Source: Nannocystis bainbridge (GTDB lineage: Bacteria; Myxococcota_A; Polyangia; Nannocystales; Nannocystaceae). From it: a stretch of 64,000 bases of DNA. The stretch covers positions 576,001 through 640,000 of the forward strand of contig NZ_JAQNDL010000005.1 of the NCBI RefSeq assembly GCF_028368995.1, in the 5' to 3' direction. This document shows, one piece after another, positions 137-60,653 of this stretch; positions within the stretch are counted from its first letter, which is position 1, and each line of letters starts with the position of its first letter. A program made the position numbers and the translations under genes. The notes below the pieces were generated by a model, which saw only the letters and a list, made by a program, of their open reading frames with translations, did not search any database and was not told the DNA's origin.

Positions 137-158
137 CACATGTCCCGAAGTTCATGTG
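137..158. repeat. 14-bp-period GACATGTC array (2 units)
   Basis: cacatgtc-ccgaag-ttcatgtg, about 155 bp upstream of the first CDS. Confidence 0.6.
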
Positions 159-312
159 GCCCCCGCGCTCCTCCGGCCGATCGATCGAATCGTCATCTCC
201 GCGGACTCATTCTCCGCGTTGACGCGTTCAGGTCGGCCCCGCGTTCGCGCCGCGCCTCGCGGTCGCGGCGTGGGTTGCTCGTATCCAATCGGTCGATCGG
301 AGTAGAAAACAG

Positions 313-2655
313 ATGGAGAAGATGAAAACCCTCGCGGCTCGTCGCGCGTACCCGTGTGCGCTTGCGACGGCCCTGTACCTCCTGGCCACCGGATGTGACG
401 GTGGCGTCGAAGTCTCGATCCACATTACCAGCCCTGCCCCCGAGCCTCCTTGTGGCGACGGCGAGATCGGGCCCGGCGAAGAATGCGACGAAGGGGCCGA
501 AAACGGCGACGACGCCGCCTGCAAGCTCGATTGCAGCCTCAACGTCTGCGGCGACGGCCACGTCGGTCCGGGCGAGGCCTGCGACGACGGCGACGACGAC
601 GACGACGACGAATGCAGCAACGCCTGCGCGTTCGGCCCGTCCTGCGGCGACGGCGTCGTCCAGCCTGGCGAGGCCTGCGACGACGGCAACGACATCGACG
701 ACGACGCCTGCAACAACGCCTGCGTCCTCGCCACCTGCGGCGACGGCATCGTCCAGATCGGCGAGGCCTGCGACGACGGCAACGCCGTCGACACCGACCT
801 CTGTACCAGCGCGTGCGCGCCCGCCAGCTGCGGCGACGGCTTCATCCAGCCTGGCGAGGGCTGCGACGACGGCGACGTCAACGGCGCGGGCGCAGCCTGT
901 CGCGCCGACTGCCAGCCCAACGTCTGCGGCGACGGCGACATCGGCCCTGGCGAGGCCTGCGACAACGGCCCGAGCAACGCCGACCACGCCGCCTGCAAGC
1001 TCGACTGCAGCCTCAATTTCTGCGGTGACGGCCACGTCGGCCCGATGGAGGGCTGCGACGACGGCAACGACATCGACGACGACGCCTGCAGCGACGCCTG
1101 CGTGGCCGCCGAGTGCGGCGACGGCGTCGTCCAGGCCACCGAGGCCTGCGACGACGGCAACGGCGACGACACCGACGCCTGCACCAGCGCCTGCACCGCG
1201 GCCGCCTGCGGCGACGGCTTCGTCCAGGCCGGCGAGGCCTGCGACGACGGCAATGACAACAGCGACGGCGGCGATTGCACGCTCGCCTGCGCCGTCGCCA
1301 CCTGCGGAGACGGCCTCGTCCACGATCAGGGGGGCGGCGGCGAGCAGTGCGACGACGGCCTCGCCAACGGCCCCGGCCACGCCTGCCTCGCCGGTTGCCA
1401 GGCCAACGTCTGCGGCGACGGCGACCTCGGACCCGGCGAGGCCTGCGACGACGGCAACCTCGTCGGCGGCGACGGCTGCGGCCCGATGTGCACCCACGAG
1501 GCCTGCGGCAACGAGATCGTCGACGCCCTCGAGCAGTGCGACGACGGCATGGACGGCGACCCGGACGACGGCTGCACCGACGCGTGCATGCTCCCGAGCT
1601 GCGGCGACGGCGTCCTGCAGATCAACGCCGGCGAGCAGTGCGACGACGGCCCCGGCAACAGCGACGCCGGCGAATGCACCGCTGGGTGCACCGTCGCCAC
1701 CTGCGGCGACGGCCACGTCCAGCTCGCGGTCGAGCAGTGCGACGACGGCCCCGGCAACGCCAACACCGGCGCCTGCAAGCTCGACTGCACCCTCGGCTAC
1801 TGCGGCGACGGCTACGTCGGCCCCGGCGAGGCCTGCGACGACGCCGACGCCATCGACAACGACACCTGCAACAACGCGTGCAAGCTGCAGACCTGCGGCG
1901 ACGGCCTCAAGCAGGGCACCGAGCCGTGCGACCTCGGCCCGCTCAACAGCAACACCGGCGCGTGCACCCTCGCCTGCACCCTCGCCGTCTGCGGCGACGG
2001 CTTCGCCCACGAGGGCGTCGAGCCGTGCGACGACGGCAACGCCAACAACACCGACGCCTGCCTGATCGGCTGCGTCGCGGCCACCTGCGGCGACGGCTTC
2101 CTGCGCGCCGGCGTCGAGGCCTGCGACGACGGCAACAACCTCGACGGCGACATGTGCAACGCCGACTGCACCCGGCCCAAGCGCGTGTTCATCACCAGCA
2201 CCACCTACAGCGGCGCCATGGGCAATTACCTCGGCACAAAGAGCAGGTGCCAGACGCGCGCCACCGCGGCCGGCCTGACCGGCACCTGGGACGCCTGGAT
2301 CAGCGTCGCCAGCAGCAGCCCTGTGCTCCGCTTCGTCAAGTCGACGACGCATTACGCCCGCCTCGACGGGACCGAGATCGCCCAGTCGTGGGCCGACCTC
2401 ACTGACGGCAGCATCGACGCGCCGATCAACCTCGACGAATTCGGCGTCCTCGTGCCGACCGCCGGTGTGTGGACCGGCACCTCGGCCACCGGCACCCCGC
2501 TGTCCGACAACTGCAACAGTTGGTCCAACAACTTCTCCAGCGGCAAGGGATACGACGGCCGCAACGACGCCACCGACTTCAACTGGACCGCCCGCTCGCT
2601 CGGCCTGTCGAGCAACTGCTCGATCCTCCAGCGGCTGTACTGCTTCGAGCAGTGA
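313..2655 (+). CDS. Myxococcus Cys-rich repeat (DUF4215) lipoprotein with C-terminal DUF1554/C-type-lectin-like domain, paralog 1
   Basis: Lipobox LATGC; 18 CGDG..E.CDDGN..C...C repeats; C-terminal RVFITS...WTG...RLYCFEQ head; strong GC3 bias. Confidence 0.9.
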   Translation: MEKMKTLAARRAYPCALATALYLLATGCDGGVEVSIHITSPAPEPPCGDGEIGPGEECDEGAENGDDAACKLDCSLNVCGDGHVGPGEACDDGDDDDDDECSNACAFGPSCGDGVVQPGEACDDGNDIDDDACNNACVLATCGDGIVQIGEACDDGNAVDTDLCTSACAPASCGDGFIQPGEGCDDGDVNGAGAACRADCQPNVCGDGDIGPGEACDNGPSNADHAACKLDCSLNFCGDGHVGPMEGCDDGNDIDDDACSDACVAAECGDGVVQATEACDDGNGDDTDACTSACTAAACGDGFVQAGEACDDGNDNSDGGDCTLACAVATCGDGLVHDQGGGGEQCDDGLANGPGHACLAGCQANVCGDGDLGPGEACDDGNLVGGDGCGPMCTHEACGNEIVDALEQCDDGMDGDPDDGCTDACMLPSCGDGVLQINAGEQCDDGPGNSDAGECTAGCTVATCGDGHVQLAVEQCDDGPGNANTGACKLDCTLGYCGDGYVGPGEACDDADAIDNDTCNNACKLQTCGDGLKQGTEPCDLGPLNSNTGACTLACTLAVCGDGFAHEGVEPCDDGNANNTDACLIGCVAATCGDGFLRAGVEACDDGNNLDGDMCNADCTRPKRVFITSTTYSGAMGNYLGTKSRCQTRATAAGLTGTWDAWISVASSSPVLRFVKSTTHYARLDGTEIAQSWADLTDGSIDAPINLDEFGVLVPTAGVWTGTSATGTPLSDNCNSWSNNFSSGKGYDGRNDATDFNWTARSLGLSSNCSILQRLYCFEQ

Positions 2656-2695
2656 CCCTACCCGCGCCATCGACGACTCTGGAGATTTCACAGTC

Positions 2696-4951
2696 ATGAC
2701 CATGAAGCTTCACTCCGTTCATTCCCTGCGCGCGGGCCTGCTCGCGGCCGGGCTGCTGCTCGCGGCCTCCGGCTGCGACAGCGCCCTCGACGTCGCCGTC
2801 GACATCAACGTCTCCTCCGGCGGCTCCGCCGGCAGCGCCTGCGGCGACGACCAAATCGGCCCCGGCGAGCAATGCGACGACGGCCCCGAGAACGGCCCCG
2901 GCAAGGCCTGCCTCGCCGATTGCCAGACCAACGTCTGCGGCGACGGCGACATCGGCCCCGGCGAGCTGTGCGACGACGGCGACGACAACGGCTTCGACGC
3001 CCCCTGCACCGATCAATGCCAGCCGGCCGCCTGCGGCGACGGCTTCGTCGGCCCTGGCGAGACTTGCGACGACGGCAACGCCATCGACACCGACCTCTGC
3101 ACCTCCGCCTGTCTGCCCGCCGCCTGCGGCGACGGCTTCCATCAATCCGCGGTCGGCGAGCAATGCGACGACGGCGGCGCCAACGGCCCCTCCGGCGCAT
3201 GTCGCAGCAATTGCACGACCAACGTCTGCGGCGACGGCGACATCGGCCCCGGCGAATCATGCGACAACGGCCCGAGCAACGCCAATAACGCCGCCTGCAA
3301 GCTCGACTGCGCCCTCGGCGTGTGCGGCGACGGCCACGTCGGCCCGATGGAGGGCTGCGACGACGGCAACGCCATCGACCTCGACGCCTGCAGCAACACC
3401 TGCGTCGCCGCCACCTGCGGCGACGGCCTGGTCCAGGCCACCGAGGCCTGTGACGACGGCAACGCCAGCGACACCGACCTGTGCACCACCGCCTGCACCC
3501 CCGCCGCCTGCGGCGACGGCCACCTGCAGCCCGGCGAGGCCTGCGACGACGGCAATGACAACAGCAACGGCGGCGACTGCACCCTCGCCTGCGCGCTCGC
3601 GGCCTGCGGCGACGGCCTCCTCCACGCCCAGGGCGGCGGCGGCGAAGAATGCGACGAGGGCCTCGCCAATGGCCCCGGCCACGCCTGCCTCGCCGACTGT
3701 CAGCTCAACGTCTGCGGCGACGGCGACCTCGGCCCCGGCGAGGCCTGCGACGACGGCAACCTCACCGCCGGCGACGGCTGCAGCCCCGTATGCGCCCTCG
3801 AGGGCTGCGGCAACGGCGTCGTCGATCCGGGCGAGCCGTGCGACGACGGAGCCGACGGCGATCAGAACGACGGCTGCACCGACGCCTGCACCCTGCCGGT
3901 GTGCGGCGACGGCCTCGTCCAGCCGAGCATCGGCGAGCAGTGCGACGCCGGCCCGGGCAACAGCAACAGCGGCGCCTGCACCCTGACCTGCAAGCACGCC
4001 ACCTGCGGCGACGGCCACGTGCGGCTCGCGGTCGAACAGTGCGACCAGGGCGCGGCCAACGGCAACGACAAGCCGTGCAAGCTCGACTGCACCGGCGCCG
4101 TGTGTGGCGACGGCGTGGTCGGCCCCGGCGAGGCCTGCGACGACGCCGACGAGGACGACGACGACGAGTGCACCAGCGCGTGCAAGGCCATGACCTGCGG
4201 CGACGGCGAGGTCCAGGTCGGCGAGCAGTGCGACGACGGCCCCGCCAACGACAACCTCGGCGCCTGCACCCTGTTCTGCCTCGAGGCCAGCTGCGGCGAC
4301 GGCTTCCTCCAGACCGGCGAGGCCTGCGACGACGGTGACGGCGACGACGGCGACGCCTGCCGCACCAACTGCGAGGCCGCCACCTGCGGCGACGGCGTGG
4401 TGTGGGTCGGCCACGAGCAGTGCGACGACGCCAACGACGACGACACCGACGCTTGCAAGTCCGACTGCACCGTGCCGAAGCGCGTGTTCGTCACCGCCGT
4501 CACCTACAACGGCAACCTCGGCGGCCTCGTCGGCGGCAAGGCCAAGTGCCAGGCCCGCGCCGACGCGGCCGACCTCGGCGGCACCTGGGACGCGTGGTTC
4601 GGCGTCACCAACAGCTCTCCGGCGACGCGCTTCGTCAAGGCGGCCGGCGGCTATCGTCGCCTCGACGGCGTGGTCGTGGCCGACAATTGGGCCGACCTGA
4701 TCGACGGCAGCCTCGACGCGCCCATCAACGTCAACGAGTTCGGCGGCCTCGCCGGCGCCCAGGGCGTGTGGACCGGCACCCTGCAGACCGGCGTGGTGAC
4801 CGGCTCCCGCTGCAACGACTGGACCTACGGCGCGGCCGAGCTGTGGGGCGCGTACGAGGGTCGCACCAACCTCGTCGACGTCGGCTGGACCTACCTCGGG
4901 GCGCAGGTCCTTTGCAACCAGCAGCGCCGCCTCTACTGCTTCGAACAATGA
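2696..4951 (+). CDS. DUF4215 repeat lipoprotein with lectin-like head, paralog 2
   Basis: GGAG at 2681, ATG 2696 (alternative 2702); lipobox AASGC; 17 repeats; RVFVT...RLYCFEQ head. Confidence 0.9.
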
Positions 4952-4983
4952 CCCGCGCGACCCAGAATCACAGGAGAATCGAC

Positions 4984-7341
4984 ATGACCCACTCTTTCAT
5001 TCGTACTACTGGTATTCGCGCGGGCCTGTTCACCGGCGCCCTGCTGCTCGCGGCCGCCGGCTGCGACGCCGACGTCGGCGTCAACCTCGACGTCGAGCCC
5101 CCGAACCTCACCGGCGGCGGCAGCGGCGGCGGCAACCTCAGCGTGTGCGGCGACGGCCAGCTCGGCTACGGCGAGGAGTGCGACCTCGGCGTCGCCAACG
5201 GCCCCGGCAGCGCGTGTCGCACCAATTGCCTGCTCAACGTCTGCGGCGACCACGAGGTCGGCGCCTACGAGGAGTGCGACCTCGGCCAGGCCAACGGCGA
5301 CGACAAGGCCTGCACCGCCGAGTGTCTGCTCGCCACCTGCGGCGACGGCCTGCTCGGCCCCGGCGAGCCGTGCGACGACGGCAACGGCGTCGACGGCGAC
5401 GCCTGCACCAACGCCTGCACCCTGCCCGACTGCGGCGACGGCATCATCCAGGTGCTCGAGGCCTGCGACGACGGCAACACCGTCGACGACGACGCCTGCA
5501 GCAACGTCTGCGTCGCGGCCGTGTGCGGCGACGGCGACCTGCAGCCCGGCGCCGGCGAGCAGTGCGACAACGGCCCGGCCAACGGCCCCGCCGCCGCCTG
5601 TCGCGCCAATTGTCTGCTCAACACCTGCGGTGACGGCAACCTCGGCCCCGGCGAGGCCTGCGACAACGGGGTCAACAACGCCGACCACGCCGCCTGCAAG
5701 CTCGATTGCACGATCGGCGTGTGCGGCGACGGCCACGTCGGGCCGATGGAGGGCTGCGACGACGGCAACGCCGTCAACAACGACGCCTGCTCCAACGCGT
5801 GCAAGCTCCCGACCTGCGGCGACGCCATCGTCCAGGCCACCGAGGCCTGCGACGACGGCAACAAGTCCAACACCGACAACTGCACCAACACCTGCACGGC
5901 CAAGGCCTGCGGCGACGGCTACTCCCAGCCCGGCGAGAGCTGCGACCTGGGCGCCAACAACAGCAACGGCAACATCTGCACGCTCAGCTGCAAGTACGCG
6001 ACCTGCGGCGACGGCCTCCTCTACAACCAGGGCAGCGGCACCGAGCAGTGCGACAACGGCCCCAACAACGGCGCCAACAAGGCCTGCCTCGCCAACTGCA
6101 AGATCAATATCTGCGGCAACGGCGATCGCGGCCCCGGCGAGGCCTGCGACGACGGCAACCTCGTCAGCGGCGACGGCTGCAGCTCGCTGTGCGCGATCGA
6201 GGCCTGCGGCAATGGCATCGTCGATCAGGGCGAGCAGTGCGACGACGGCATGGATCACGATCAGGACGACGGGTGCACCGACCTGTGCCGCTTCCCCGCG
6301 TGCGGCGACGGCTTCACCCAGGCGAGCCTCGGCGAGACCTGCGACGCCGCCAATGTCAACAGCGACAGCGGCGCGTGCACGCTGAGCTGCAAGCTCGCGA
6401 CCTGCGGCGACGGCCACCTGCAGCTCGGCGTCGAGCAGTGCGACGGCGGCGACGACAACGGCGAGGACCAGCCCTGCAAGCCCGACTGCACCGGCGGCAT
6501 CTGCGGCGACGGCTTCGTCTCACCGACCGAGCCGTGCGACGACGCCAACCTCGTCAACGAGGACGGCTGCACCAACGTCTGCAAGCTGCCGACCTGCGGC
6601 GACGGCTTCCTGCAGGCCGGCGAGCCGTGCGACGAGGGCGAGGCCAACGACAACGGCGGCACCTGCACCCTCGCGTGCACCCTGCCCGCCTGCGGCGACG
6701 GCTTCCTTCAGGCCGGCGAGGCCTGCGACGACGGCAACCTCGTGCAGACCGACGACTGCCTCAACAACTGCCAGCTGCCGGTGTGCGGCGACGGCTTCGT
6801 GTGGGCCGGCCACGAGACCTGCGAGGACCTCAACACCGCCGAGGCCGACGGCTGCTTCGCCTGCACCGCCGCCCGGCGCGTGTTCGTCACCAGCACCTTC
6901 TACGACGGCAACCTCGGCGGCCTCGCCGGCGCCGCCGCGAAGTGCCAGGAGCGCGCCCTCGCGGCCGGCCTCGGCGGCACCTGGGACGTCTGGCTCAGCA
7001 CCGACGAGAGCACCCCGCTGGCCCGCCTGGTGCCGTCCCTCGCCGGCTACCGGCGGCGCGACAGCGTCATCGTCGCCAACACGTTCGCCGACCTGACCGA
7101 CGGCACCGTCGACATCGCCATCAACGTGACCGAGACCCTGTCCTCGGTCGCGGCCTCGGACGTGTGGACCGGCACCACCTCCGCCGGCCTCCTGGCGACC
7201 CACCACTGCTCCAACTGGACGAGCAACAACGCCGCCCTGTCGGGCCGGATCGGCCGCACCAGCCTGACCAACCTCGGTTGGACCGACTCGACGGTCGGCG
7301 CCTGCAACACCGCCCGTCGCCTGTACTGCGTCGAGCTCTGA
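4984..7341 (+). CDS. DUF4215 repeat lipoprotein with lectin-like head, paralog 3
   Basis: AGGAG before ATG 4984 (an in-frame ATG at 4948 overlaps the upstream stop); lipobox AAAGC; 18 repeats; RVFVTS...RLYCVEL head. Confidence 0.9.
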   Translation: MTHSFIRTTGIRAGLFTGALLLAAAGCDADVGVNLDVEPPNLTGGGSGGGNLSVCGDGQLGYGEECDLGVANGPGSACRTNCLLNVCGDHEVGAYEECDLGQANGDDKACTAECLLATCGDGLLGPGEPCDDGNGVDGDACTNACTLPDCGDGIIQVLEACDDGNTVDDDACSNVCVAAVCGDGDLQPGAGEQCDNGPANGPAAACRANCLLNTCGDGNLGPGEACDNGVNNADHAACKLDCTIGVCGDGHVGPMEGCDDGNAVNNDACSNACKLPTCGDAIVQATEACDDGNKSNTDNCTNTCTAKACGDGYSQPGESCDLGANNSNGNICTLSCKYATCGDGLLYNQGSGTEQCDNGPNNGANKACLANCKINICGNGDRGPGEACDDGNLVSGDGCSSLCAIEACGNGIVDQGEQCDDGMDHDQDDGCTDLCRFPACGDGFTQASLGETCDAANVNSDSGACTLSCKLATCGDGHLQLGVEQCDGGDDNGEDQPCKPDCTGGICGDGFVSPTEPCDDANLVNEDGCTNVCKLPTCGDGFLQAGEPCDEGEANDNGGTCTLACTLPACGDGFLQAGEACDDGNLVQTDDCLNNCQLPVCGDGFVWAGHETCEDLNTAEADGCFACTAARRVFVTSTFYDGNLGGLAGAAAKCQERALAAGLGGTWDVWLSTDESTPLARLVPSLAGYRRRDSVIVANTFADLTDGTVDIAINVTETLSSVAASDVWTGTTSAGLLATHHCSNWTSNNAALSGRIGRTSLTNLGWTDSTVGACNTARRLYCVEL

Positions 7342-12158: not shown

Positions 12159-14237
12159 GTGAACATCGAAACGTTCGTAGCGACCGCTCGTCGGGTGGTT
12201 CAGACCTCTTATTTGCCGATGGCCGGCGCCCTCGTGCTCGCATCGGTATACGCGACGCCGCGGATCGCCGAAGCCTACCCCGTCAAGCCGCCCTGGCGGG
12301 CGGATTCGCTGCCGGCGGACAACTTCATGATCACCAAGGGGCACGGCGGGTACAACTGCCCCGGCAATTGTGGCATCGACCTCAAGGTCTGGCGATTGGA
12401 CCCCACGAGCTCGGCCTGGACGTTCCTCAAGCCGGGATCCACGGCGACGCCGACGCCGCACGAAGATCATCTCGCGTGGGGCATGCCATTGTTCTCACCG
12501 GTCGATGGTGAGGTGGTCGCCTGCTGGTGGAACATGGAGGAGGACCTGCCTGGTGGTTCGGTGGGGCCTACCAACGGCGAGCCGCTGTCATGCTTCTCGA
12601 CCCCGGACGGCGGGTGTGTCGTCTCGGGCAATCACCTGATGATCCGCACCTTCGACGGTCACGTCGTCTATCTGGCGCATCTCCAGCGCGGCAGCATCCC
12701 GGCCGGGCTGTGCCCGATCCCCGGGACGGCCACGACCAACCTGACGCTGACGGCGTCGTCCGGAGAGGTGTGCAACAAGAGCGGTTGGGGGGGGATGTGG
12801 AACGGGGCGCGCCTCGATCTGCAGCCAGGATTCACCGCGTACCCTCAGGTCAAGAAGGGTGATTTCGTCGCCCGAATCGGGAGCAGCGGCGGATCGGATG
12901 CACCGCACCTCCACATGAGCGTGTACGAGTATTCGGAGGACTCAATCGTCACCAAAAACCCCTGCATTCGCGGGGAGCCGTGGGAATTCAGCGAGGCGTT
13001 CTCGCAGGAGGTCGTTTCGGGCGTCGAGCCCGACGTGAACGACTGGGACCGGCTCGAGGGCGAAGAGCTGCCGTTCGACGGCATCACCGGCTTCCACTTG
13101 TGGGGCGACCCGCTCGGGCCGCGCAACGACCACGTCTTCGTCGAGAACGGCACGATGCCCGCGGTGGCCGCCACTGCCTCCGGCGGCCTCATCGCCTACA
13201 AGAACTCCTCGAACATCCTCGAGGCGGCCGGCTTCACGATCGACCTCGCGGGCCAGATCGACCTCGGGCCCGAGGACGTGCGGTCCGGGGCCGTCGACTT
13301 CGACGTCGCGCGGATCAACCAGGTCGACCCGCACGCCGTGGTGGCGTACATCGACGGCACGACGACGCGACTGTCGCTCCTCCCGTACTTCGTCGAATCG
13401 GACGCCGACATCATCGCGGGCGGCTTGCACAGCGAGCTCAGCTCCGGCGCACAGTTGGTCCGCGCGACGGCGTCGCCGAACGACAACGGCATCGTCGTCG
13501 CCATCAAGAACAGCCTCGACGGCGTCTCGGTGGTCAACTACGAGACGACCCGGGTCGGCACCCACATCACCGTCTCGCGCGAGGCCAGCGATCTCACCTC
13601 GCCCGAGATCATCGACCTCGACGTCGCCACCATCGTGGCCGGGCGCGCGCGCAGCGAGACCACCGGCGCCTTCAAGGGCGTGGTGACGGCGGAGCGGCGC
13701 GACGACAATACGCTGTGGCTGCAGAGCTGGAAGCTCGACTCGACTGGGTCGAACCTCGACCAGATCGACGCGAAGCAGGTCACGACCCTCGTGGGCAACG
13801 TCGGCTTCGGGGTGAGCGAGGTCGACGTCACGGTGACCGGCAGCTTCGGCCGCGAGTACATCCTGGTGTCGTCGGCGCTCGACACTGGTTCGAGCAGCCT
13901 GCGGCTCCAGACCTGGGAAGTCTCGTCGCTCGGGATCCTCGGCAAGGTCGACCAGTTCGACGGCGGCGGGCCGATCTCGCACCTGTCCTCGACCCGCTCC
14001 GGCCTGCAGGACGCGCTCGTCGGCATGCGCCTCGGCACCTCCAGCCACACCCTGCTGTCGTTTCACGTGACCTCCGACGGGCTCATCCGCCGCGTCGGCA
14101 CGTGGGACGGCGAGAACATCCAGGCCCTGGCGCTGGCCGGGCGCAGCTCGCAGGAGGACGCGATCGCCCTGTTCCGCACCGCCTCCGGCATGCTCGACCT
14201 GGCCCGCTACGTCACCAATTATATGTGGTCCCTCTGA
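12159..14237 (+). CDS. Secreted M23-peptidase-like protein with long C-terminal beta-rich domain
   Basis: GIDL, YLAHLQRGS and VKKGD..ARIGSSGGSDAPHLH motifs; signal peptide ending AEA; GGAG before GTG 12159 (start uncertain). Confidence 0.75.
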   Translation: MNIETFVATARRVVQTSYLPMAGALVLASVYATPRIAEAYPVKPPWRADSLPADNFMITKGHGGYNCPGNCGIDLKVWRLDPTSSAWTFLKPGSTATPTPHEDHLAWGMPLFSPVDGEVVACWWNMEEDLPGGSVGPTNGEPLSCFSTPDGGCVVSGNHLMIRTFDGHVVYLAHLQRGSIPAGLCPIPGTATTNLTLTASSGEVCNKSGWGGMWNGARLDLQPGFTAYPQVKKGDFVARIGSSGGSDAPHLHMSVYEYSEDSIVTKNPCIRGEPWEFSEAFSQEVVSGVEPDVNDWDRLEGEELPFDGITGFHLWGDPLGPRNDHVFVENGTMPAVAATASGGLIAYKNSSNILEAAGFTIDLAGQIDLGPEDVRSGAVDFDVARINQVDPHAVVAYIDGTTTRLSLLPYFVESDADIIAGGLHSELSSGAQLVRATASPNDNGIVVAIKNSLDGVSVVNYETTRVGTHITVSREASDLTSPEIIDLDVATIVAGRARSETTGAFKGVVTAERRDDNTLWLQSWKLDSTGSNLDQIDAKQVTTLVGNVGFGVSEVDVTVTGSFGREYILVSSALDTGSSSLRLQTWEVSSLGILGKVDQFDGGGPISHLSSTRSGLQDALVGMRLGTSSHTLLSFHVTSDGLIRRVGTWDGENIQALALAGRSSQEDAIALFRTASGMLDLARYVTNYMWSL

Positions 14238-14245
14238 ATTACGAA

Positions 14246-14281
14246 CACATGTCCTCGAGGACATGTCGATGAAAACGTGAT
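14246..14281. repeat. 14-bp-period GACATGTC array (2-3 units)
   Basis: cacatgtc-ctcgag-gacatgtc-gatgaa-aacgtgat, starting 9 bp after the stop. Confidence 0.85.
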
Positions 14282-14431: not shown

Positions 14432-15508
14432 GTGGAGCTCCACGTCCCAGCCCGACCCGCGCCCTTCCGCTTCCGCCCCCGCGCCACCGCCCTGCTCGTG
14501 ATCGACATGCAGGGCGACTTCCTGCTCCCCGGCGGCTTCGGCGAGGCCCTCGGCAATGACGTGCGCGAGCTGCAGCGGACCATCGCCCCGACCCGCGCCC
14601 TCCTCGACGCCGCGCGCGCCGCCGGCCTGCTCGTCGTGCACACCCGCGAGGGCCACCGCCCCGACCTCAGTGACTGCCCGCCGGCCAAGCACGCGCAAGG
14701 CCGCGAGGGCCTGCGGATCGGCGATCCCGGCCCGCGCGGGCGGATCCTCGTGCGCGGCGAGTCCGGCTGGGACATCGTGCCCGAGCTGGCCCCGGCGCCT
14801 GGCGAGCCGCTGATCGACAAGCCCGGCAAGGGGGCCTTTCACGCCACCGACCTCGAGCTCATCCTGCGCAACCGCGGGATCGAGGCGTTGCTGGTCGTCG
14901 GCGTGACCACCGAGGTCTGCGTGCAGACCACCGTGCGCGAGGCCAACGACCGCGGCTTCCGCTGCCTCGTGCTCGCCGACTGCGTCGCCTCCTACTTCCC
15001 CGAGTTTCACCGCGTCACCCTCGACATGATCGCGGCCCAGGGCGGCATCGCCGGCTCGGTCGGTCAATCCGCCGACCTCATCGCCGCGCTCGCGGGCGCC
15101 CCCGAGGCGCTCGAGCGCACGGTGCTGCGCTTCTACGAGGAGGCGCTCAACGCCGGCCGCGACGACGCGTTCACCGAGCTGCTCGCGCCCGACGTCGCCT
15201 ACGACAACCCGGCGACCGGCGTCACCCGCGGGCCCGCGGGCGTGCTCGCGGCGATCCGGGGCCTGCGCGCCGCCTTCCCCGACCTGCGCTACACCGTCGA
15301 GGAGCTGCTCGTCGACGGCGACCGCGTCGCCGCGCGCTTCACCCTCCGCGGCACCCACCACGGCCCCTTCCGCGGGCGGGCTGCGACCGGCCGCAGCGTC
15401 GAGGTCGGCGGCAGCACCCACTACCGCGTCGCCGGCGGCCAGCTCACCGAGGTCCGCGTGTTCGCCGATTTCCTCGGCTTGCTGCGGCAGATCGGCGCCG
15501 AGATCTAG
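14432..15508 (+). CDS. Biuret-hydrolase-like cysteine hydrolase fused to a SnoaL/ester-cyclase domain
   Basis: [27 protein letters not shown] motifs; C-terminal [33 protein letters not shown]; TACCCT 6 nt before GTG. Confidence 0.85.
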
Positions 15509-19372: not shown

Positions 19373-19906
19373 ATGACACTGGCCACCCCGCGCCCCACTT
19401 CTCCCGGCCTCCTGCGCCGCGTGCACCTGACCGGGATGCTGGCCCTGACCCTCGCCAGCGCCGCCTGCGACGTCGACGAGATCGAGGTGTCGAGCGACAA
19501 GTCGGGCGCCTACAAGTCGGAATCGGGCGGCCGCGGCACCAAGGTCCTCACCGCCGCCGACGGCTCGACGGTGACGATCCAGCGCGACGGCACGGTCACC
19601 AAGCCTGACGGCACCAAGGTCCAGGTCAAGAAGGACGGCACGATCGTCATGTCCGACGGCAAGCGCGTGCGCGTGTTCCCCGACGGCTCACGCTCGACGC
19701 TGTCGGTCGAGCGCACCGAGTTCACCGCCGACGGCTCGATGGTCGTGGTCGCCGACGACGGCTCGCGCACGACGATCGCCCCCAACGGCACCGTCACCCG
19801 CGAGCTCCCCGGCGGCGCCCGCTCGTCGCTGACGATCGAGAAGCCCACGCCCCCCTCGGCCGCCCCGGCCCCGACCCCCGCCCCGACCCAGACCGCCACG
19901 CCCTGA
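19373..19906 (+). CDS. Lipoprotein with xDG(S/T) beta-hairpin repeats
   Basis: Lipobox SAAC; repeated DGST/DGTV/DGTK/DGTI/DGKR; Pro-Thr tail. Confidence 0.75.
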   Translation: MTLATPRPTSPGLLRRVHLTGMLALTLASAACDVDEIEVSSDKSGAYKSESGGRGTKVLTAADGSTVTIQRDGTVTKPDGTKVQVKKDGTIVMSDGKRVRVFPDGSRSTLSVERTEFTADGSMVVVADDGSRTTIAPNGTVTRELPGGARSSLTIEKPTPPSAAPAPTPAPTQTATP

Positions 19907-39668: not shown

Positions 39669-39689
39669 CCGAGCGCCTCCGCGCACCGC

Positions 39690-41108
39690 TCACGCGGCCG
39701 AGGCCGGCGCGTGGCGGGCCAGCAGCGCCCGCCCGGCCGGCCCGATCACCGCGGTCATCGCCCGCCGGGCCACCGCCATCCGCCCGGCCGCGCCCAGGCG
39801 CCCGTGCGCGAGCATCCTTTCGGACATGTCCTTTTCGACATGTCCCAGCGACCTCCCGACGCCCACCTCCGCGGCCGCCAGCGCCGCCGCGCAGGCCGCG
39901 TAAACCGCCGGACCGCCGCGCTCCAGCGCCCACGCCACGAACCGCCAGGCCAGCTCCGCGTGGCGCAGCTCGTCGGCGGCGATCCGGGCCAGCGCCGCGC
40001 GCACTGCTGGATCCTCCGCCCGCGCCAGCGCGGCCTCGGCCTGCAGGGCGGCGAACGTCTCGCCGATGCAGCCCTCGCGCAGCGTCGCCACCGTCACCGT
40101 CACCAGGTCGTCCGCGCCCGTCAGCGCCCCCGCCAGCGGCAGCGGCGACGGCCCCCGCGGCTCGCCGCCGTACGCCCCCGCCAACCCGAAGCACAGCCGC
40201 GCGTGCGCGACCTCGTCGGCCATCGCCTGCTGCGCCGCCTCGACCAGGCTCGCCGGGGCCCCGAGCGCCAGCAGCTGCAGCGCGAAGCGGGCGAACGCGG
40301 CCACCGACGCGTGCTCGGCCAGCCCGTCCTCGAGCCACCCGGCCGCCAGCGCCGCCCGCTCGCCCGCCGACAGCCCGGCCAGCGCCGGCGCCACCGCCGA
40401 GCCCCAGTCGTCGCGCGCCAGCGGCCGCGCCGTGCGAGCTGTCTCTTCGACCAGGAAGGGCCGCCCGCAGCAGCTCGACTGCCACGAGACATTCACGCAG
40501 CACTGCCCGCGCTGCTCGAACGGCGGCGAGATCGAGGCCGGCCACAGACCGCAGTCTTCGAAGACCGGGACCTCGACCCCCGCGCACGCCCCGCTGTCGC
40601 CCATCGTGTCGCCCGTCGTGTCCCCCGTCGTCGAGTCCGCGCCGGTCGTGCCGGTCGTGTCCCCCGTCGTCGTGTCCCCGGTCGTCTCGCCCGTCGTCTC
40701 GCCCGGCAGCTCGGTGCATTCGACGGTGTCGAAGTGGTCGATCGGGCAATCCGGCGTCTCCGACGTATCGCTCGACTGCGACGTCGCCACGGTCGGATCG
40801 GTCGGATCGGTCGCCGACTCGGAGGTCTCCGGCTCCGGCGCCGTCGTCGGCTCCGTCTCCGTGATCGTCCCCGGCAGCGGCTCCGTGCTCGTCCCCGGCC
40901 CCGGGGCCGTGCTCGTCGTCGTCCCGTCGCCGGTGCTCGCCGTCGTCCCGTCGCCCGTGCTCGTCATGCCCGACGCCGAGCCCTCGGTCGCGGCGACCGG
41001 GCGCTCCGTGCACGCGCCCGCCAGCACCAGCGGCGCCATTCCGGCGGCCCGCAGCAGCACCGCCAACACCTCGGCCTCACGCAGCTTGAGAAAATCGAAG
41101 TTAGTCAT
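39690..41108 (-). CDS. Ferritin-like (di-iron) domain lipoprotein
   Basis: LAGAC lipobox, Thr-rich linker, CCGRPF, EHASVAAF, DEVAH, EGCIGET, DELRH. Confidence 0.85.
   Translation of the reverse strand: MTNFDFLKLREAEVLAVLLRAAGMAPLVLAGACTERPVAATEGSASGMTSTGDGTTASTGDGTTTSTAPGPGTSTEPLPGTITETEPTTAPEPETSESATDPTDPTVATSQSSDTSETPDCPIDHFDTVECTELPGETTGETTGDTTTGDTTGTTGADSTTGDTTGDTMGDSGACAGVEVPVFEDCGLWPASISPPFEQRGQCCVNVSWQSSCCGRPFLVEETARTARPLARDDWGSAVAPALAGLSAGERAALAAGWLEDGLAEHASVAAFARFALQLLALGAPASLVEAAQQAMADEVAHARLCFGLAGAYGGEPRGPSPLPLAGALTGADDLVTVTVATLREGCIGETFAALQAEAALARAEDPAVRAALARIAADELRHAELAWRFVAWALERGGPAVYAACAAALAAAEVGVGRSLGHVEKDMSERMLAHGRLGAAGRMAVARRAMTAVIGPAGRALLARHAPASAA
39823..39844. repeat. Intragenic GACATGTC array (2 perfect units)
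   Basis: gacatgtc-cttttc-gacatgtc inside the ferritin-like CDS. Confidence 0.85.
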
Positions 41109-41168
41109 TTCGCCTGCATACCACGGTGCCTCCCGGTGAGACAGACCCCGGCCGACGGGCGCTCTCGC

Positions 41169-41190
41169 CATATGTCCATGAAGACATGTC
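41169..41190. repeat. 14-bp-period array (2 units)
   Basis: catatgtc-catgaa-gacatgtc. Confidence 0.85.
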
Positions 41191-41445
41191 CCATCGACCA
41201 CTTTGCGTCATGCCCTGGGGGCCATCGTCCCCTCTGCACCTGCGCACCCGGCCGTGATCTCGCAGGACACGAACCTCGACCCGGAGGCGATCGCTCCGCG
41301 CAAGGTCGTGGCTCCGGTCGAGTCGATCGACCACGACGGACGCCACCCCCACCGCACCGACGACGGGCGCGGCTCAAAGCTGACCACCGACGCCACCATC
41401 GCGGCAGCGGCAGCATACACCGCGTCGCCGCACCTGGCTCAACGA

Positions 41446-41490
41446 TAAATGACCGAAGGGACATGTTCTCTCGAACATGTCCCTTCGGTC
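41446..41490. repeat. 14-bp-period array forming a perfect 18-bp inverted repeat
   Basis: gaccgaagggacatgttc-tctc-gaacatgtcccttcggtc (41451-41490), 33 bp downstream of the minus-strand stop at 41523. Confidence 0.9.
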
Positions 41491-41522
41491 CACTCACGAC
41501 ACGCGCCGTTCGGCGCGTCGGC

Positions 41523-43280
<1,758 letters not shown>

Positions 43281-50261: not shown

Positions 50262-50840
50262 GTGACCGACCCGACCGACGGCCCTGGCATCCTCCTCGTC
50301 CCTCGCGCCGCCCAGCCGCGCGTGCGCTGGAAGAACGACGGCGGCTGGACCACCGAGCTGGCCGTGCGGCCCGAGGGCGCCGGTGAATTCGACTGGCGCG
50401 TCAGCATCGCCGAGGTCGACGCCGACTGCCGCTTCTCGCACTTTCCTGGCATCGACCGCAGCATCCTCGTGCTCGCCGGCCCCGGCTTCGATCTCCGCGT
50501 CGACGGCGAGCCTCTCGCGCAGCTGCGCCTCGGCGACCCCGCCCACCCCTTCTCCGGCGATCGCGGGGCCGCCTGCGACCTCGTCGGCGGCCCCACCCGC
50601 GACTTCAACGTCATGACCCGCCGCGGCCGCGTCCGTCACACGCTCACCCGCACCCGCGCTGCCACCCTCGAGCATCGCCCCGGCCTGACCTGGCTCGTTT
50701 ACGTCGAAGGCGGCGACACCCTCGTCGCCGGCGTCCGGGCGACCGCCGGCGACTGCGTAATCTTGGAACATGTCCCCGAGGACACCTTCCCCGTCACCCT
50801 CGCCGGCGACCTCGTCCTCGTCCGCCTCGAGTATCTATGA
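50262..50840 (+). CDS. HutD/Ves family protein
   Basis: WKNDGGWTTE, FDWRVSIA, FSHFPGIDR, DFNVMTRR; TACCGT 7 nt before GTG. Confidence 0.9.
   Translation: MTDPTDGPGILLVPRAAQPRVRWKNDGGWTTELAVRPEGAGEFDWRVSIAEVDADCRFSHFPGIDRSILVLAGPGFDLRVDGEPLAQLRLGDPAHPFSGDRGAACDLVGGPTRDFNVMTRRGRVRHTLTRTRAATLEHRPGLTWLVYVEGGDTLVAGVRATAGDCVILEHVPEDTFPVTLAGDLVLVRLEYL
50767..50788. repeat. Intragenic 14-bp-period site
   Basis: aacatgtc-cccgag-gacacctt near the 3' end of the HutD CDS, preceded by AT-rich codons (gta atc ttg gaa cat). Confidence 0.7.
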
Positions 50841-51432: not shown

Positions 51433-51500
51433 GAGCGCGCCGCCTCGGCGTGCCGCGAACATACGCCCTCGCAACTACGGCCCGGCGTATGCTCGCGCCC

Positions 51501-52265
51501 ATGCGCGCCCCTCTCCTCGTCCTCACGCTCGCGGCTTGCGGCGCCTCGTCGACCCCCGGCGGCGCTGCACCCGACCCGAAGCCCGCGCCCGTCGATGCGC
51601 CCGCGCCCACGAGCGTCGATGTCCTGACCACCAGCGCCGGCCCCTTCGAGATCCACCCGGTGCATCACGGCACCGTGCGATTCGCCATCGGTGACAAGGT
51701 CGTGTGGGTCGACCCGTGGTCCAAGGCCGATCTGCGCGGCCCCAAAGCCGACCTCGTGCTCGTCACCGACATCCACCCCGACCACTTCGACGCCGCCGCG
51801 ATCGCCAGCGTGCGCAAGGACGACGCCATCGTCGTCGCGCCCGCCGTGGTCGCCGAGCAGCTCGCCGGCGCGGTCGTGCTCGCCAACGGCGAATCGCGCG
51901 ACCTCGGGTTCCTCCGCGTCGAGGCGGTGCCGATGTACAACCTCGTGCGCGGCCCCGAGCCGGGCAAGCTCTATCACGACAAGGGCCGCGGCAACGGCTA
52001 CGTGCTGACGGTCGGCGACCGCCGGATCTACCTCTCGGGCGACACCGAGTGCACGCTCGAGATGCAGGCCCTGCGCGACATCGATGTCGCCTTCGTGTGC
52101 ATGAACCTGCCCTACACGATGACCCCGACCGAGGCCGCCGGGTGCGTCGCCGCCTTCAAGCCGAAGGTCCTCTACCCCTATCACTACCGCGACTCCGACC
52201 TCGACGCGCTCGACGGCGCCCTGGCCGGCAGCGGCGTCGAGGTCCGCCGCCGCGCCTGGTATTGA
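51501..52265 (+). CDS. MBL-fold metallo-hydrolase lipoprotein
   Basis: LAAC lipobox, DIHPDH, SGDT, PYHY; TATGCT 7 nt before ATG. Confidence 0.9.
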   Translation: MRAPLLVLTLAACGASSTPGGAAPDPKPAPVDAPAPTSVDVLTTSAGPFEIHPVHHGTVRFAIGDKVVWVDPWSKADLRGPKADLVLVTDIHPDHFDAAAIASVRKDDAIVVAPAVVAEQLAGAVVLANGESRDLGFLRVEAVPMYNLVRGPEPGKLYHDKGRGNGYVLTVGDRRIYLSGDTECTLEMQALRDIDVAFVCMNLPYTMTPTEAAGCVAAFKPKVLYPYHYRDSDLDALDGALAGSGVEVRRRAWY

Positions 52266-52317
52266 TGTCCTTCAGAACATGCTCTTCGAGACATGCCCCA
52301 TGAGACATGTCCCGAAG
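52262..52317. repeat. 14-bp-period GACATGTC array (4 units)
   Basis: ttgatgtc-cttcag-aacatgct-cttcga-gacatgcc-ccatga-gacatgtc-ccgaag; overlaps the TGA and fills the convergent gap. Confidence 0.9.
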
Positions 52318-52326: not shown

Positions 52327-53211
52327 TCATTCACACACCACGCCGTCACCGTCGGCGTCGCGGTAATACGCATACTCCGGATCGCGGCCGCGGCGGTACG
52401 GCCCGGCGCCGCGGGCCTTCGCCTCCTTGCAGCTGCCGTAGTTCGGGTCGCCGCCGCTGGTCCGGGGCGCCGTCTTTTTGTCCTGCGAAACCACCGCCGG
52501 TACCTCGATCGGCCCGCCGTCGGGCGCGACCTCGTCCGGGCAGCCGCGCAGGACGTCCTGCATCGCCTCGCGCTCGTCCTCGGTGATCCACAGCCCGTAC
52601 TTGGCCTTGACGGCGATCTGGCGGGCCACGTAGGCGCAGCGGTAGTCGTGGTTCGGCGGCAGCCACAGGGCAGCGTTGCTGCCGCCCTTGGCGCGATTGG
52701 CCGAGGCGTCGACCGCCAGCAGGTTGAGCGGATCGTTGGCCAGCGCGATCCGCCGCGCCGGCTGCCACGCCGCCGCGCCGGTGGCCCACGCGTCGCCGAG
52801 CGCGACCACGTGATCGATGTCGACCGCCGGCCCGCCGCCGCGCTCGAAGGCGATGTCTGCCGCGGTGTACGGATCGGCCAGCTTGCCGGCCGTGACCACG
52901 CAGGGGCGCTTGCTCGGCGCGAGTCGGACCTCGCGGAGGTCACGGCGCAGGATGTCGTCGCGCGTGTCGCAGCCGTTGTGGTCGATGTCGAGCCACGCGC
53001 GCCCGAACTGGTCGCGCGCGTAGTCGCGGCCGTCGCGCGGACGCACCGGCAGCGTCGCCAGCAGCGGCGCCGCCAGCCGCCCCGCGTCGCCAGCGTCATC
53101 CGCGACGATCGCGGCCGGCACCGCGCCGTGGCCCGCCGATCCGCCGGGATCGCAGCCGAGGCCCAGCAGAACGGCGAATACGGCGAAACGGAGGCGCGGG
53201 CGGGCGATCAC
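52327..53211 (-). CDS. Secreted HNH (DUF1524) nuclease with Excalibur Ca-binding domain
   Basis: GCDTRDDIL, IDHVV, ANDPLNLLAV..SANRAKG; C-terminal DADGDGVVCE; start uncertain. Confidence 0.9.
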   Translation of the reverse strand: MIARPRLRFAVFAVLLGLGCDPGGSAGHGAVPAAIVADDAGDAGRLAAPLLATLPVRPRDGRDYARDQFGRAWLDIDHNGCDTRDDILRRDLREVRLAPSKRPCVVTAGKLADPYTAADIAFERGGGPAVDIDHVVALGDAWATGAAAWQPARRIALANDPLNLLAVDASANRAKGGSNAALWLPPNHDYRCAYVARQIAVKAKYGLWITEDEREAMQDVLRGCPDEVAPDGGPIEVPAVVSQDKKTAPRTSGGDPNYGSCKEAKARGAGPYRRGRDPEYAYYRDADGDGVVCE

Positions 53212-60063: not shown

Positions 60064-60087
60064 GCCCTGGTTCAGCGCGACGTCCTG

Positions 60088-60477
60088 CTAACAATCGCAG
60101 GTGTACGCCGAGATCTTGTCGTTCCACCACTCGCCGACGAACGGCACCGACCCCTGAAACGAATTCTGCGCCCCGGCGAAATCGGCGTGCTCGAACACGT
60201 TGAGCACGCAGCCCGAGCGCACCTTCACCGACGACACCACGTCGTTCCACAGGTTACCGATGAACGACACGTACGCCCCGGCCTCGACCCGCTTGGCCTC
60301 ACCTTCGAAGTGCCAGTGCTCGTACATCGTCGCGCATTCGCCCCCGCGGCCGCTGACCTCGTCGAACGGCGCCACCTCCGCCACCTCCGTCTCGTCCTCG
60401 CCCGCGAGCTCCTCCGCCTCGTCGCATCCCATCAAAAAAACAATCGCACCCACCGCGCTGATGATCGCCCTTCGCAT
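60088..60477 (-). CDS. Beta/gamma-crystallin-like (syncollin-like) lipoprotein
   Basis: GGAGGA RBS; LMGC lipobox; YEH..FEG...WNDVVSS and FEH..FAG...WNDKIS Greek-key motifs. Confidence 0.82.
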   Translation of the reverse strand: MRRAIISAVGAIVFLMGCDEAEELAGEDETEVAEVAPFDEVSGRGGECATMYEHWHFEGEAKRVEAGAYVSFIGNLWNDVVSSVKVRSGCVLNVFEHADFAGAQNSFQGSVPFVGEWWNDKISAYTCDC

Positions 60478-60586
60478 CGCTCCTCCGATCGCCGATCTCA
60501 TGCCGCAGCGCCTCACCCCGGCAACCGCCCGGCAGGAGTTCTTATGACCGCTTGACGGCGACCGCCCGCGCGCGAGATCGCGGCAT

Positions 60587-60653
60587 CGCATGTCCCCAAG
60601 GCCATGTGACTGCATTCACGGGCATTCGGCCGACATGTCTTTCAAGACAGCCT
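60587..60653. repeat. Two 14-bp-period pairs
   Basis: cgcatgtc-cccaag-gccatgtg (60587-60608) and gacatgtc-tttcaa-gacagcct (60632-60653, 3 bp from the stop at 60656). Confidence 0.85.

Follow-up and report, generated by a model that had tools for sequence, protein, structure and literature searches.

Arrays of a CATG palindrome, strictly phased and placed at Nannocystis gene ends, look like an undescribed relative of E. coli REP repeats

What purpose could a short palindrome serve when it recurs, at an exact period and at many places, in a bacterial chromosome? The question is raised by the window, that is, the whole 64-kb stretch of Nannocystis DNA analysed here. The initial annotation of this stretch saw about 17 loci, approximately one per 4 kb, carrying 2–6 copies of the unit TGTCY-N4-RGACA, and proposed a chromosome-wide DNA signal bound cooperatively by a dimeric protein.

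The unit and its 14-bp period

In the window, GACATGTC is present in 11 copies compared with a mean of 0.94 (maximum 4) in 100 shuffles, and TGTCYNNNNRGACA in 7 copies compared with 0.18 (maximum 1). Across the 11.05-Mb Nannocystis genome to which the window belongs, GACATGTC reaches 2237 copies where approximately 74 are expected from base composition. Distances from one CATG to another peak genome-wide at 14, 28, 42, 56, and 70 bp (3736, 2073, 1586, 751, and 383 pairs, respectively, over a background of approximately 70–300), while distances of 10, 11, 13, 16, and 17 bp are represented by 66–83 pairs each and no excess was seen at 13, 15, or 16 bp. The peaks at 14, 28, and 42 bp that the initial annotation had predicted are present, with two further ones behind them, and its view of a strictly phased, genome-wide family with free spacers holds.

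Pairs in 14-bp phase group into 2074 arrays of at least two units, in which the unit RGRCATGYCY is joined by a free 4-nt spacer. This corresponds to one array per 5.3 kb, of similar order to the density first estimated from the window and slightly lower, or to one per 10 kb for the 1071 arrays with at least three units. Array length in the genome ranges from 2 to 20 units, with 368, 279, 241, 133, and 37 arrays featuring 3, 4, 5, 6, and 7 units, respectively, and multiples of three are not preferred, contrary to the earlier suggestion that three units make four helical turns. The spacers have a symmetric Y..R bias, with A disfavoured on the 5′ side and T on the 3′ side, which matches the unit as first written. 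Complementary spacers are rare (2.4% vs. 1.1% background), near-identical neighbouring units within some arrays are a sign of recent slippage, and array copies share no sequence outside the 10-nt unit. Outside the arrays, arithmetic from the counts gives approximately 33,700 CATG where about 28,700 are expected from base composition; the tetranucleotide is thus neither avoided nor much enriched. A MITE was considered and rejected, as spacers differ among arrays (identity at all four positions in 1.2% of between-array pairs) and the number of units is variable (2 to 20).

The unit GGACATGTCC agrees letter for letter with the p53 half-site consensus RRRCATGYYY. This match is a sequence coincidence; the genome gave no match to the p53 DNA-binding domain, a family for which the control genomes cannot respond. 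Papers retrieved by searching the literature for the motif deal with p53, apart from a few that are unrelated and non-bacterial. The arrays themselves are not described in the portions of the literature searched, including term look-ups in REP surveys, and Rfam 15 at gathering score gave no matches in the 64-kb window, in keeping with the initial annotation, which had considered the family possibly undescribed.

Position relative to genes

Gene coordinates were taken from a crude gene caller of our own rather than from curated annotation. Among the 1071 arrays with at least three units, 765 are fully and 191 partly intergenic, and 115 are inside called genes. Those with an intergenic midpoint (n = 944) are distributed over convergent (514), tandem (383), and divergent (47) spacers, and in tandem spacers the arrays lie a median of 21 nt past the preceding stop and 193 nt ahead of the next start. 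Arrays are present in 57–63% of convergent spacers of 60–400 bp vs. 0–3% of divergent spacers of 60–250 bp; approximately 54 good arrays are located in divergent spacers as well. Of the 7843 called genes, 1640 are followed by an array no more than 100 nt past their stop. The signal is therefore genome-wide, as first proposed, but it is not position-blind.

Within the window nearly all arrays lie directly past a stop codon (Table 1), a point missed in the initial annotation, and the neighbouring genes are functionally unrelated according to Pfam, as had been stated there. Ten of the 19 positions listed at that time qualify as arrays, each having two or more CATG units at a distance of exactly 14 bp (137, 14246, 20015, 25234, 29921, 39633, 39823, 41446, 52262, and 60587). 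Lone 14-bp palindromes of 1–1.5 units account for 26268, 34595, 50767, and 60632, degenerate versions with CCTG/CAGG for 15508 and 32135/32171, and one good unit with a CATATG variant for 41169. Position 11675 makes no convincing array.

Table 1. Palindromic units and arrays in the 64-kb window (no strand is assigned; gene strands in parentheses).
Coordinates	Feature	Context or basis	Folding and orthologous sites
134..161	2-unit array, ACATGTCC-CGAAGT-TCATGTGG	Two CATG 14 bp apart; window edge, upstream gene outside view	
14243..14270	2-unit array	6 nt past stop of gene 12219..14237(+)	8-bp hairpin, 4-nt loop
15504..15531	Degenerate 2-unit palindrome, CCTG/CAGG replacing CATG	At stop of gene 14432..15508(+)	
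20012..20095	About 5–6 phased units	Between convergent 19421..19906(+) and 20220..21284(-); CATG chain 20026–20081, flanking units degenerate	RNA fold: + strand -35.5 kcal/mol (z -4.0), - strand -46.6 (z -7.3)
25245..25272	2-unit array	16 nt past stop of PAS-domain gene 24510..25229(+)	Phased units in four other species too
26264..26287	Single 14-bp palindrome TGTCTCATGAGACA, one full unit		
29918..29987	5-unit array	Fills the spacer of a convergent pair: 28863..29921(+), a zinc alcohol dehydrogenase gene, and 30013..31746(-), DUF4403	-32.6 and -29.9 kcal/mol; kept in place in 6 species, CATG cores invariant
34595..34615	Single palindrome TGTCCTTCAGGACA	17 nt past stop of 33367..34578(+)	Missing at the orthologous site of 4 other species
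39630..39671	2–3-unit array	19 nt past stop of gene 39690..41108(-)	Arrays after the orthologous stop in 3/3 species giving an anchor
39820..39847	2-unit array	Within coding sequence of 39690..41108(-), encodes GHVEKDMS; GC3 0.9–1.0 throughout array	Kept in G005
41165..41200	One good unit and CATATG variant	Approximately 60 nt ahead of called start of 39690..41108(-)	
41446..41495	2-unit array, near-perfect 17-bp hairpin	About 40 nt past stop of 41523..43220(-)	-36.2 kcal/mol, z -8.2; in orthologues outer arms differ yet remain complementary
50762..50790	1.5 units, GAACATGTCC-CCGA-GGACAC		
52259..52314	4-unit array	Fills the spacer of a convergent pair: 51489..52265(+), with MBL fold, and 52327..53121(-), GmrSD_C	- strand -28.4 kcal/mol, + strand -16.4; 2-unit palindrome at same place in G001
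60584..60651	2-unit array and separate 1.5-unit palindrome	Past stop of 60656..61522(-)	

The 40-kb ribosomal/rpoBC/tuf cluster contains no array and features hairpin-plus-U terminators instead, and an array is found downstream of only 5 of 102 tRNA genes. The arrays thus do not serve as the general terminator of this genome. Canonical terminator-like sites occur in 11.7% of array-holding convergent spacers vs. 31.8% of array-free ones, which is weak evidence because the former also hold half as much non-array sequence (72 vs. 145 nt).

Folding and strand polarity

The arrays have a mean fold of -23.4 kcal/mol vs. -12.8 kcal/mol for shuffles, with z-scores of -2.7 to -8.2 for those in the window. 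Pairing across the spacer is above expectation (0.484 vs. 0.432, and 0.59 vs. 0.52 in two-unit arrays), and pairing inside one unit shows no excess (0.402 vs. 0.442 expected). The spacers barely add stability (-0.57 ± 0.16 kcal/mol, the real array being the more stable one in no more than 186 of 400 cases), and a bias of the loops to stable tetraloops on the sense strand was looked for and not seen. Neither the strict 4-nt spacer nor the CATG core can be accounted for by thermodynamics alone.

For arrays in tandem spacers, sense RNA folds more stably than antisense RNA in 254 cases and less stably in 186; the excess beyond composition amounts to -1.28 ± 0.21 kcal/mol. At position +4, T/(T+C) is 0.778 vs. 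an A/(A+G) of 0.651 at the mirror position, and the share of G·U-type pairs at +4/+13 is 22.4% for the sense strand vs. 11.3% for the antisense strand; between convergent genes these pairs are symmetric (15.5% vs. 18.4%). Spacers and downstream flanks in tandem context were searched for a corresponding T/C vs. A/G skew, and none was seen. The motif is polar with respect to the gene upstream of it, and its G·U-type bias is missing at neutral positions, a pattern that points to selection acting on transcripts, or on single strands, rather than on duplex DNA alone; selection on single-stranded DNA could likewise produce the polarity.

This bears directly on the explanation nearest to the original proposal, according to which the arrays would be duplex-DNA docking sites for an abundant, lineage-specific dimeric protein that binds cooperatively to TGTCY-N4-RGACA (or RGRCATGYCY) in a fixed 14-bp register and acts at gene ends as a bidirectional roadblock or supercoiling barrier. 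Such binding would suit the strict ruler, a core conserved beside saturated spacers, the small contribution of the spacers to folding, and the symmetric Y..R preference, as indirect readout would give, while the abundance in convergent spacers suits a roadblock or topological role and arrays in divergent spacers are accommodated too. The operators of ribbon-helix-helix repressors are built comparably, MetJ metboxes being 8-bp palindromes abutting in runs of 2–5, and the fixed period, free spacers, and short palindromic boxes placed head to tail in runs of 2 to 7 are the signature of cooperative dimer binding. In contrast to such operators, however, the Nannocystis arrays occupy thousands of gene 3′ ends rather than a few promoters, lack a known cognate protein, and are polar relative to transcription, where operator symmetry would be independent of the transcribed strand; the sense bias vanishes between convergent genes. 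Neither this polarity, with its sense-strand G·U bias, nor the surplus pairing across spacers is predicted by a dimer on duplex DNA, and the array lengths are without three-unit periodicity. Neither an mTERF match nor a candidate protein was found, the genes beside promoter-side arrays being unlike DNA-binding regulators (judged by eye, not by Pfam). Binding of this kind is an unlikely explanation, and the protein coat of the initial annotation is not favoured; what survives of it is a sequence-specific reader, implied by the ruler and by the CATG core beside saturated spacers.

Conservation and relation to known elements

The arrays are abundant in Nannocystis only, as eight further genera of its family and 12 further families of its class yielded none. 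Within the genus, strict three-unit matches vary from 27 to 104 per genome among species, and 400 kb of G009, a distant member, yield 8 phased CATG pairs vs. 187 for G000. Arrays occupy the same gene 3′ ends in 4–6 species; 12 of 17 mapped arrays of G005 have a counterpart array in G000, and 3 of the 14 arrays that are genuine in G005 lack one there, indicating gain or loss between species. For 11 arrays (40 units) compared between species, identity is 0.88–0.95 in CATG, 0.33–0.50 in the spacers, and 0.59 in the outside flanks, and among species with 80–87% identical flanks the place, phase, and CATG core are kept while the spacers are randomised.

The uneven distribution would be expected if the arrays were selfish or neutral repeats, a small palindrome spread by some mobilising activity or by slippage that persists without cell function wherever it is harmless, such as in spacers past gene ends. 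Massive expansion in one subclade only, variable density, gain and loss between species, and slippage among adjoining units are consistent with such an origin, as are the absence of arrays from core, highly expressed operons and the order convergent > tandem > divergent, which insertion tolerance would produce. Conservation of place, phase, and core beside randomised spacers is not, nor is the lack of out-of-phase indels despite spacer saturation, and the site-specific strand polarity is a mark of selection. The copies, moreover, are alike in the 10-nt unit only, and the hallmarks of REP mobilisation are missing: the RAYT (Y1 transposase, PF01797) search that responded in 6 of 14 control genomes gave no match in G000 (90.5% complete), in accordance with the initial annotation, which saw no transposase, GTAG/CTAC lies within 12 nt of the array end in 51 of 1071 arrays vs. 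64 in a control 60 nt further out, and CGTC/GACG lies near the ends of 216 of 1071 vs. 369 in the same control. A selfish or neutral origin is quite improbable. A recognition tag for a DNA transaction, such as an uptake-type signal or clustered CATG methylation sites, is very improbable: CATG is a known methyltransferase target, and the DNA uptake sequences of Neisseria and Haemophilus accumulate as inverted pairs at terminator-like positions, much as this short, high-copy, genus-restricted motif forms palindromic pairs past genes, but strict tandem phasing up to seven or more units is foreign to uptake sequences, a unit that is its own reverse complement cannot carry orientation, and CATG outside the arrays is neither shunned nor strongly enriched.

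The closest resemblance is to the REP/BIME elements, from which the initial annotation had set the family apart. In both cases, high-copy palindromes, mainly extragenic and in regularly spaced clusters, are located after stop codons and between convergent genes, form hairpins in RNA, and have a species-specific sequence. REPs are imperfect palindromes of 20–40 nt with alternating orientation and defined linkers. In the arrays, two neighbouring units and their spacer make a 24–28-nt hairpin; the repeating element itself is a perfect palindrome of only 10 nt, which recurs strictly every 14 nt and leaves 4-nt spacers of free sequence. A RAYT gene and GTAG or CGTC tags belong to REPs, and the Nannocystis arrays are without either. 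Thus, the distinction holds for family membership, whereas distribution and likely role resemble REP/BIME. The study that defines these tags mentions neither Nannocystis nor four other myxobacterial names (PMC3733652), and E. coli REP325 is described in a 2026 preprint as both a partial terminator and an mRNA stabiliser (10.64898/2026.03.23.713779). With intrinsic terminators, the arrays share a stable G+C-rich hairpin tens of nucleotides past the stop, which, being symmetric, is usable from both strands between convergent genes. They differ in the conserved core, the tandem and phased units, and the absence of a U-tract (TTTT within 15 nt downstream in only 1.6% of 442 oriented arrays; downstream T 13–17%), and the core operons of the genome use ordinary hairpin-plus-U terminators instead.

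Taken together, these observations favour, with a probability of roughly one half, a Nannocystis-specific REP/BIME-like family of hairpin arrays in 3′ untranslated regions, probably read by a candidate sequence-specific factor. Each array would be transcribed as a tandem, strictly 14-nt-phased run of self-complementary RGRCAUGYCY, in which any two units, or the half-units flanking a spacer, could pair, so that RNA from either strand would always form at least one stable hairpin, with loops of 4 nt. These hairpins may serve as U-tract-independent transcript-end elements. E. coli REPs block 3′-to-5′ exonucleases and limit read-through, and by analogy the arrays might protect transcripts from such degradation and reduce transcription running on into the adjacent gene, which is often convergent. 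They lengthen and shorten in 14-bp steps, by slippage. A reader is implied because the CATG core is invariant and spacings of 13 or 15 nt are not tolerated; this candidate protein, specific for sequence and geometry, would act on the hairpin RNA or on DNA. More tentatively, and rather doubtful as yet, the arrays may constitute a dedicated, hitherto undescribed Nannocystis gene-end code, in which a lineage-specific protein reads CAUG/CATG palindromes at a 14-nt register on nascent hairpin RNA or on DNA, and in which runs of 2–7 end or protect transcripts at about one fifth of genes and most convergent pairs, parallel to hairpin-plus-U terminators.

The function of REP-type repeats has been disputed for forty years, in part because those of E. 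coli are heterogeneous. The Nannocystis arrays are unusually clean: the unit measures 10 nt, the period is exactly 14 nt, the spacers are free, copies number 2–7, and approximately 60% of convergent gene ends have an array, without a confounding transposase and with an almost array-free sister lineage in the same genus. The number of units, their spacing, and the core can therefore each be varied in reporters, which allows a direct test of how sequence and geometry relate to function. From the strict ruler a specific reader is predicted, and pull-down could isolate it. Ultimately, as Nannocystis is a producer of natural products, gene-end signals of this kind would aid the annotation of its genomes and the design of expression constructs.

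A phased palindrome family at gene ends

The palindrome GACATGTC occurs 11 times in the window as against 0.94 in shuffled sequence, and TGTCYNNNNRGACA 7 times as against 0.18. The window belongs to an 11.05-Mb genome, G000, with 71.5% G+C and five contigs (C5:576001-640000), and the genome as a whole carries 2237 copies of GACATGTC versus approximately 74 expected by composition. CATG-CATG spacings in G000 peak at 14, 28, 42, 56, and 70 bp (3736, 2073, 1586, 751, and 383 pairs) over a background of about 70-120 pairs (about 260-300 where the spacing is divisible by three), and 13, 15, and 16 bp show no excess. The initial annotation proposed such a family of palindromic arrays with a 14-bp period and expected autocorrelation peaks at 14, 28, and 42 bp; the genome-wide enrichment and the spacing peaks establish both. 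Among the 19 positions that it lists, ten hold arrays with two or more CATG units and the others single or degenerate units, and the one at 11675 is unconvincing.

Chaining CATGs in 14-bp register across G000 yielded a catalogue of 2074 arrays comprising 6213 units and 92.6 kb summed, each unit consisting of the consensus RGRCATGYCY and then four almost unconstrained bases. Two-unit arrays number 1003, of which about 70-120 are possibly due to chance, judging from neighbouring-spacing counts. There are 368, 279, 241, 133, and 37 arrays with 3, 4, 5, 6, and 7 units, respectively, and thirteen with more than 7, the longest having 20. This distribution is non-geometric, being almost flat from 3 to 5 units and collapsing past 6 (133, 37, 7), which suggests an upper size limit of approximately 85-100 bp. 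Some arrays display a 42-bp super-period, either as two good units and then a 14-nt non-unit stretch or as a repeated 3-unit block.

Features of the window and of G000 (coordinates without a contig refer to the window)
Location	Strand	Feature	Detail
313..2655, 2696..4951, 4984..7341	+	Three large ORFs	Composed of 93-99-bp tandem repeats with abundant TGC/GAC codons (Tandem Repeats Finder)
23042-23083		CATG pair caught by chaining rule	Rejected as chance
29918-29987		Array	Beside the same gene in six species
39820-39847		2-unit array within CDS	Gene 39690..41108(-); encodes GHVEKDMS; GC3 0.9-1.0 throughout array
41165-41200		Array	Not after a stop codon
41490-41520	-	Separate G+C-rich hairpin (GACGCGCCGAACGGCGCGTGTC)	Between stop of 41523..43220(-) and array
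C1:638593-638733		Array	42-bp super-period
C4:430269 onward		Array	42-bp super-period
C2:2556665-2559233	one strand	23 tRNA genes within 2.6 kb (aragorn)	No adjoining array

Positions were counted against genes called by a simple codon-statistics caller (7843 genes, 81% coding), and all positional counts are approximate. Among the 1071 arrays of at least three units, 765 are wholly intergenic, 191 partly so, and 115 within called genes; the 944 with an intergenic midpoint divide into 514 convergent, 383 tandem, and 47 divergent, from spacer totals of 1427, 4319, and 1451, respectively. Of convergent spacers 60-400 bp long, 57-63% contain an array, which occupies 13-36% of their bases; the proportion is 8-29% for tandem spacers of 60-800 bp and 0-3% for divergent spacers of 60-250 bp. 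In tandem spacers, the median distance from the upstream stop to the array is 21 nt and from the array to the next start 193 nt, and the longest arrays entirely fill the space between two stop codons. An array follows the stop by no more than 100 nt in 1640 of the 7843 called genes, and in the window all good arrays but two (see table) follow a stop codon. What had been described as a scattered chromosome-wide signal is thus placed at gene ends by this mapping, and array density is even along all five contigs (24-67 per full 250-kb bin) with no obvious trend with position.

The window genes beside arrays match unrelated domains (a weak M23 match, STAS, PAS, zinc dehydrogenase, DUF4403, DUF4215, MBL fold, and GmrSD_C), in agreement with the functionally unrelated neighbours reported earlier. 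Autoregulation by the 54 good arrays in divergent spacers was considered and dropped, as ten small neighbour proteins do not, by eye, resemble DNA-binding regulators. The separate hairpin listed in the table has counterparts at the equivalent place in two other Nannocystis species (G005 and G007). The DUF4215 match belongs to gene 41523..43220. The three repeat-built ORFs of 313-7341 look like myxobacterial cysteine-rich repeat proteins.

Conservation in place and phylogenetic range

In the array shared by six species, conservation covers the two central CATG cores and their outer arms; the central spacer varies freely, and what is left of the spacer is unalignable. At four other arrays of the window, phased units occur at the orthologous 3' end in almost every anchorable species, with one array missing in one species. 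At the spacer orthologous to that following window gene 24510..25229, CAGG/CCTG replaces CATG in one species, G001, which retains three phased units (GGACAGGTCC-GAAA-GGACAGGTCC-TTCC-GGTCCTGTC), indicating that the register can outlast the CATG core. A 472-kb sample of G005 contained 49 arrays, 17 of which had both flanks mapped to G000; there, 12 correspond to an array of at least two units, 4 to an isolated CATG, and 1 to neither, and three of the 17 are chance intragenic pairs. The coding-sequence array of the window is also kept in G005, with spacer changes. Across 11 genuine arrays (40 units), identity between the two genomes is 0.88-0.95 for CATG, 0.53-0.80 for the three positions on either side, 0.33-0.50 for spacers, and 0.59 for outside flanks; since any two periodic arrays align CATG on CATG, these values show that place, phase, and core have been kept, without implying that individual units are ancient.

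A strict 3-unit pattern matches 104 times in G000, 27-68 times in each of five large congeneric genomes, and 0-4 times in five others of the genus, which are smaller or more distant. No match came from 8 further genera of the same family, 12 further families of its class, or viral contigs, and a reversed control pattern gave zero matches in every genome so searched. A prokaryote scan with one genome per species returned at least 84 stretches; among the matches listed, 79 are from Nannocystis/Nannocystaceae and 5 are single hits elsewhere. In 400 kb of a distant genus member (G009) there are 8 phased CATG pairs, versus 187 in G000, along with a few genuine arrays, and 200 kb from another genus (G011) shows CATG spacing at background. 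These counts indicate that the family is expanded approximately twenty-fold in one subclade. Spacing scans for arrays of other motifs found none among palindromic 4-mers in small samples of two other genera (G011, 200 kb; G013, 41 kb), and a scan of all 4-mers in the small 400-kb sample of G009 found only a trace of the CATG-14 signal.

Strand polarity and the question of a reader

Pairing across the spacer exceeds expectation (0.484 vs 0.432 overall; 0.59 vs 0.52 in 2-unit arrays, reaching outward about 12 positions), and pairing of two positions within one unit falls below it (0.402 vs 0.442), so the relevant symmetry is that of a hairpin whose loop is the spacer. In tandem context, the mean fold of the sense RNA is -23.4 kcal/mol versus -21.6 for the antisense, with sense stronger in 254 arrays and antisense in 186 and an excess over composition of -1.28 +/- 0.21. 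The polarity is site-specific: T/(T+C) at position +4 is 0.778 versus 0.651 for A/(A+G) at the mirror position, while skews in spacers and downstream flanks are 0.02-0.04. Pairs of the G·U type at +4/+13 make up 22.4% in sense and 11.3% in antisense, a bias that is gone between convergent genes (15.5% vs 18.4%); there, Watson-Crick pairs are a little more frequent (58.3% vs 55.3%). Together, the pairing, fold, and polarity results suggest that selection acts on one strand, the transcript being the simplest candidate. The cooperative dimeric protein on duplex DNA envisaged in the initial annotation predicts neither the cross-spacer pairing, nor the sense-fold excess, nor the site-specific polarity with its G·U bias.

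Stability of the hairpin has its limits as an explanation. Spacers add almost nothing to folding stability in a spacer-swap test and complementary spacers are rare, on which grounds long-range hairpins are rejected as a general selected feature. The spacing never departs from 14 bp despite substitution-saturated spacers, the CATG core is kept, and sense-strand loops show no bias toward stable tetraloops. Taken with the small effect and rare complementarity of the spacers, these features suggest that the arrays are read by something with a fixed geometry and a preference for sequence. As to candidates, G000 has no match to mTERF (PF02536) and none to the p53 domain (PF00870), for which the control was silent everywhere. 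A single CsrA is encoded, and each unit contains GGA, but within predicted stems. A modest but reasonable probability is given to the arrays having behind them both a dedicated reader and a true gene-end code.

Comparison with known elements

Canonical terminators are ruled out: no U-tract follows the arrays, an array lies downstream of only 5 of 102 tRNA genes, and the 40-kb ribosomal/rpoBC/tuf cluster is free of them, its operon ends bearing ordinary hairpin-plus-U terminators. With arrays masked, canonical terminator sites are fewer in array-bearing spacers, a comparison confounded by spacer length; the unmasked exclusion test is confounded by T-rich spacers within the arrays. A RAYT-driven REP is likewise ruled out by the lack of any match to the RAYT transposase (PF01797) in G000 and of a GTAG/CGTC tag at the arrays. 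A MITE is excluded, as array copies share nothing but the unit.

No Rfam family matches within the window at gathering score. Literature searches, covering titles and abstract openings, found no published description, and term look-ups in the main text of two REP surveys (PMC12306157 and PMC3733652) turned up neither the genus name nor any of the other terms. Because the unit is identical to the consensus of the p53 half-site, an identity taken to be coincidence, searching for the motif brought up mostly p53 papers and none on bacteria. The arrays are a real, abundant, and genus-restricted family with no description found in the literature so searched.

The arrays resemble REP/BIME in position and likely action, although they lack the transposase and tag of REP-RAYT systems and have an unusual architecture, in which perfect palindromes of 10 nt recur at exactly 14 nt with free spacers between them. 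In E. coli, REP325 is reported to have a dual role, limiting read-through and shielding mRNA (10.64898/2026.03.23.713779). The favoured reading, at about even odds, is that the Nannocystis arrays act in a REP/BIME-like manner, as putative 3'-UTR hairpin elements that would limit read-through and/or shield mRNA.
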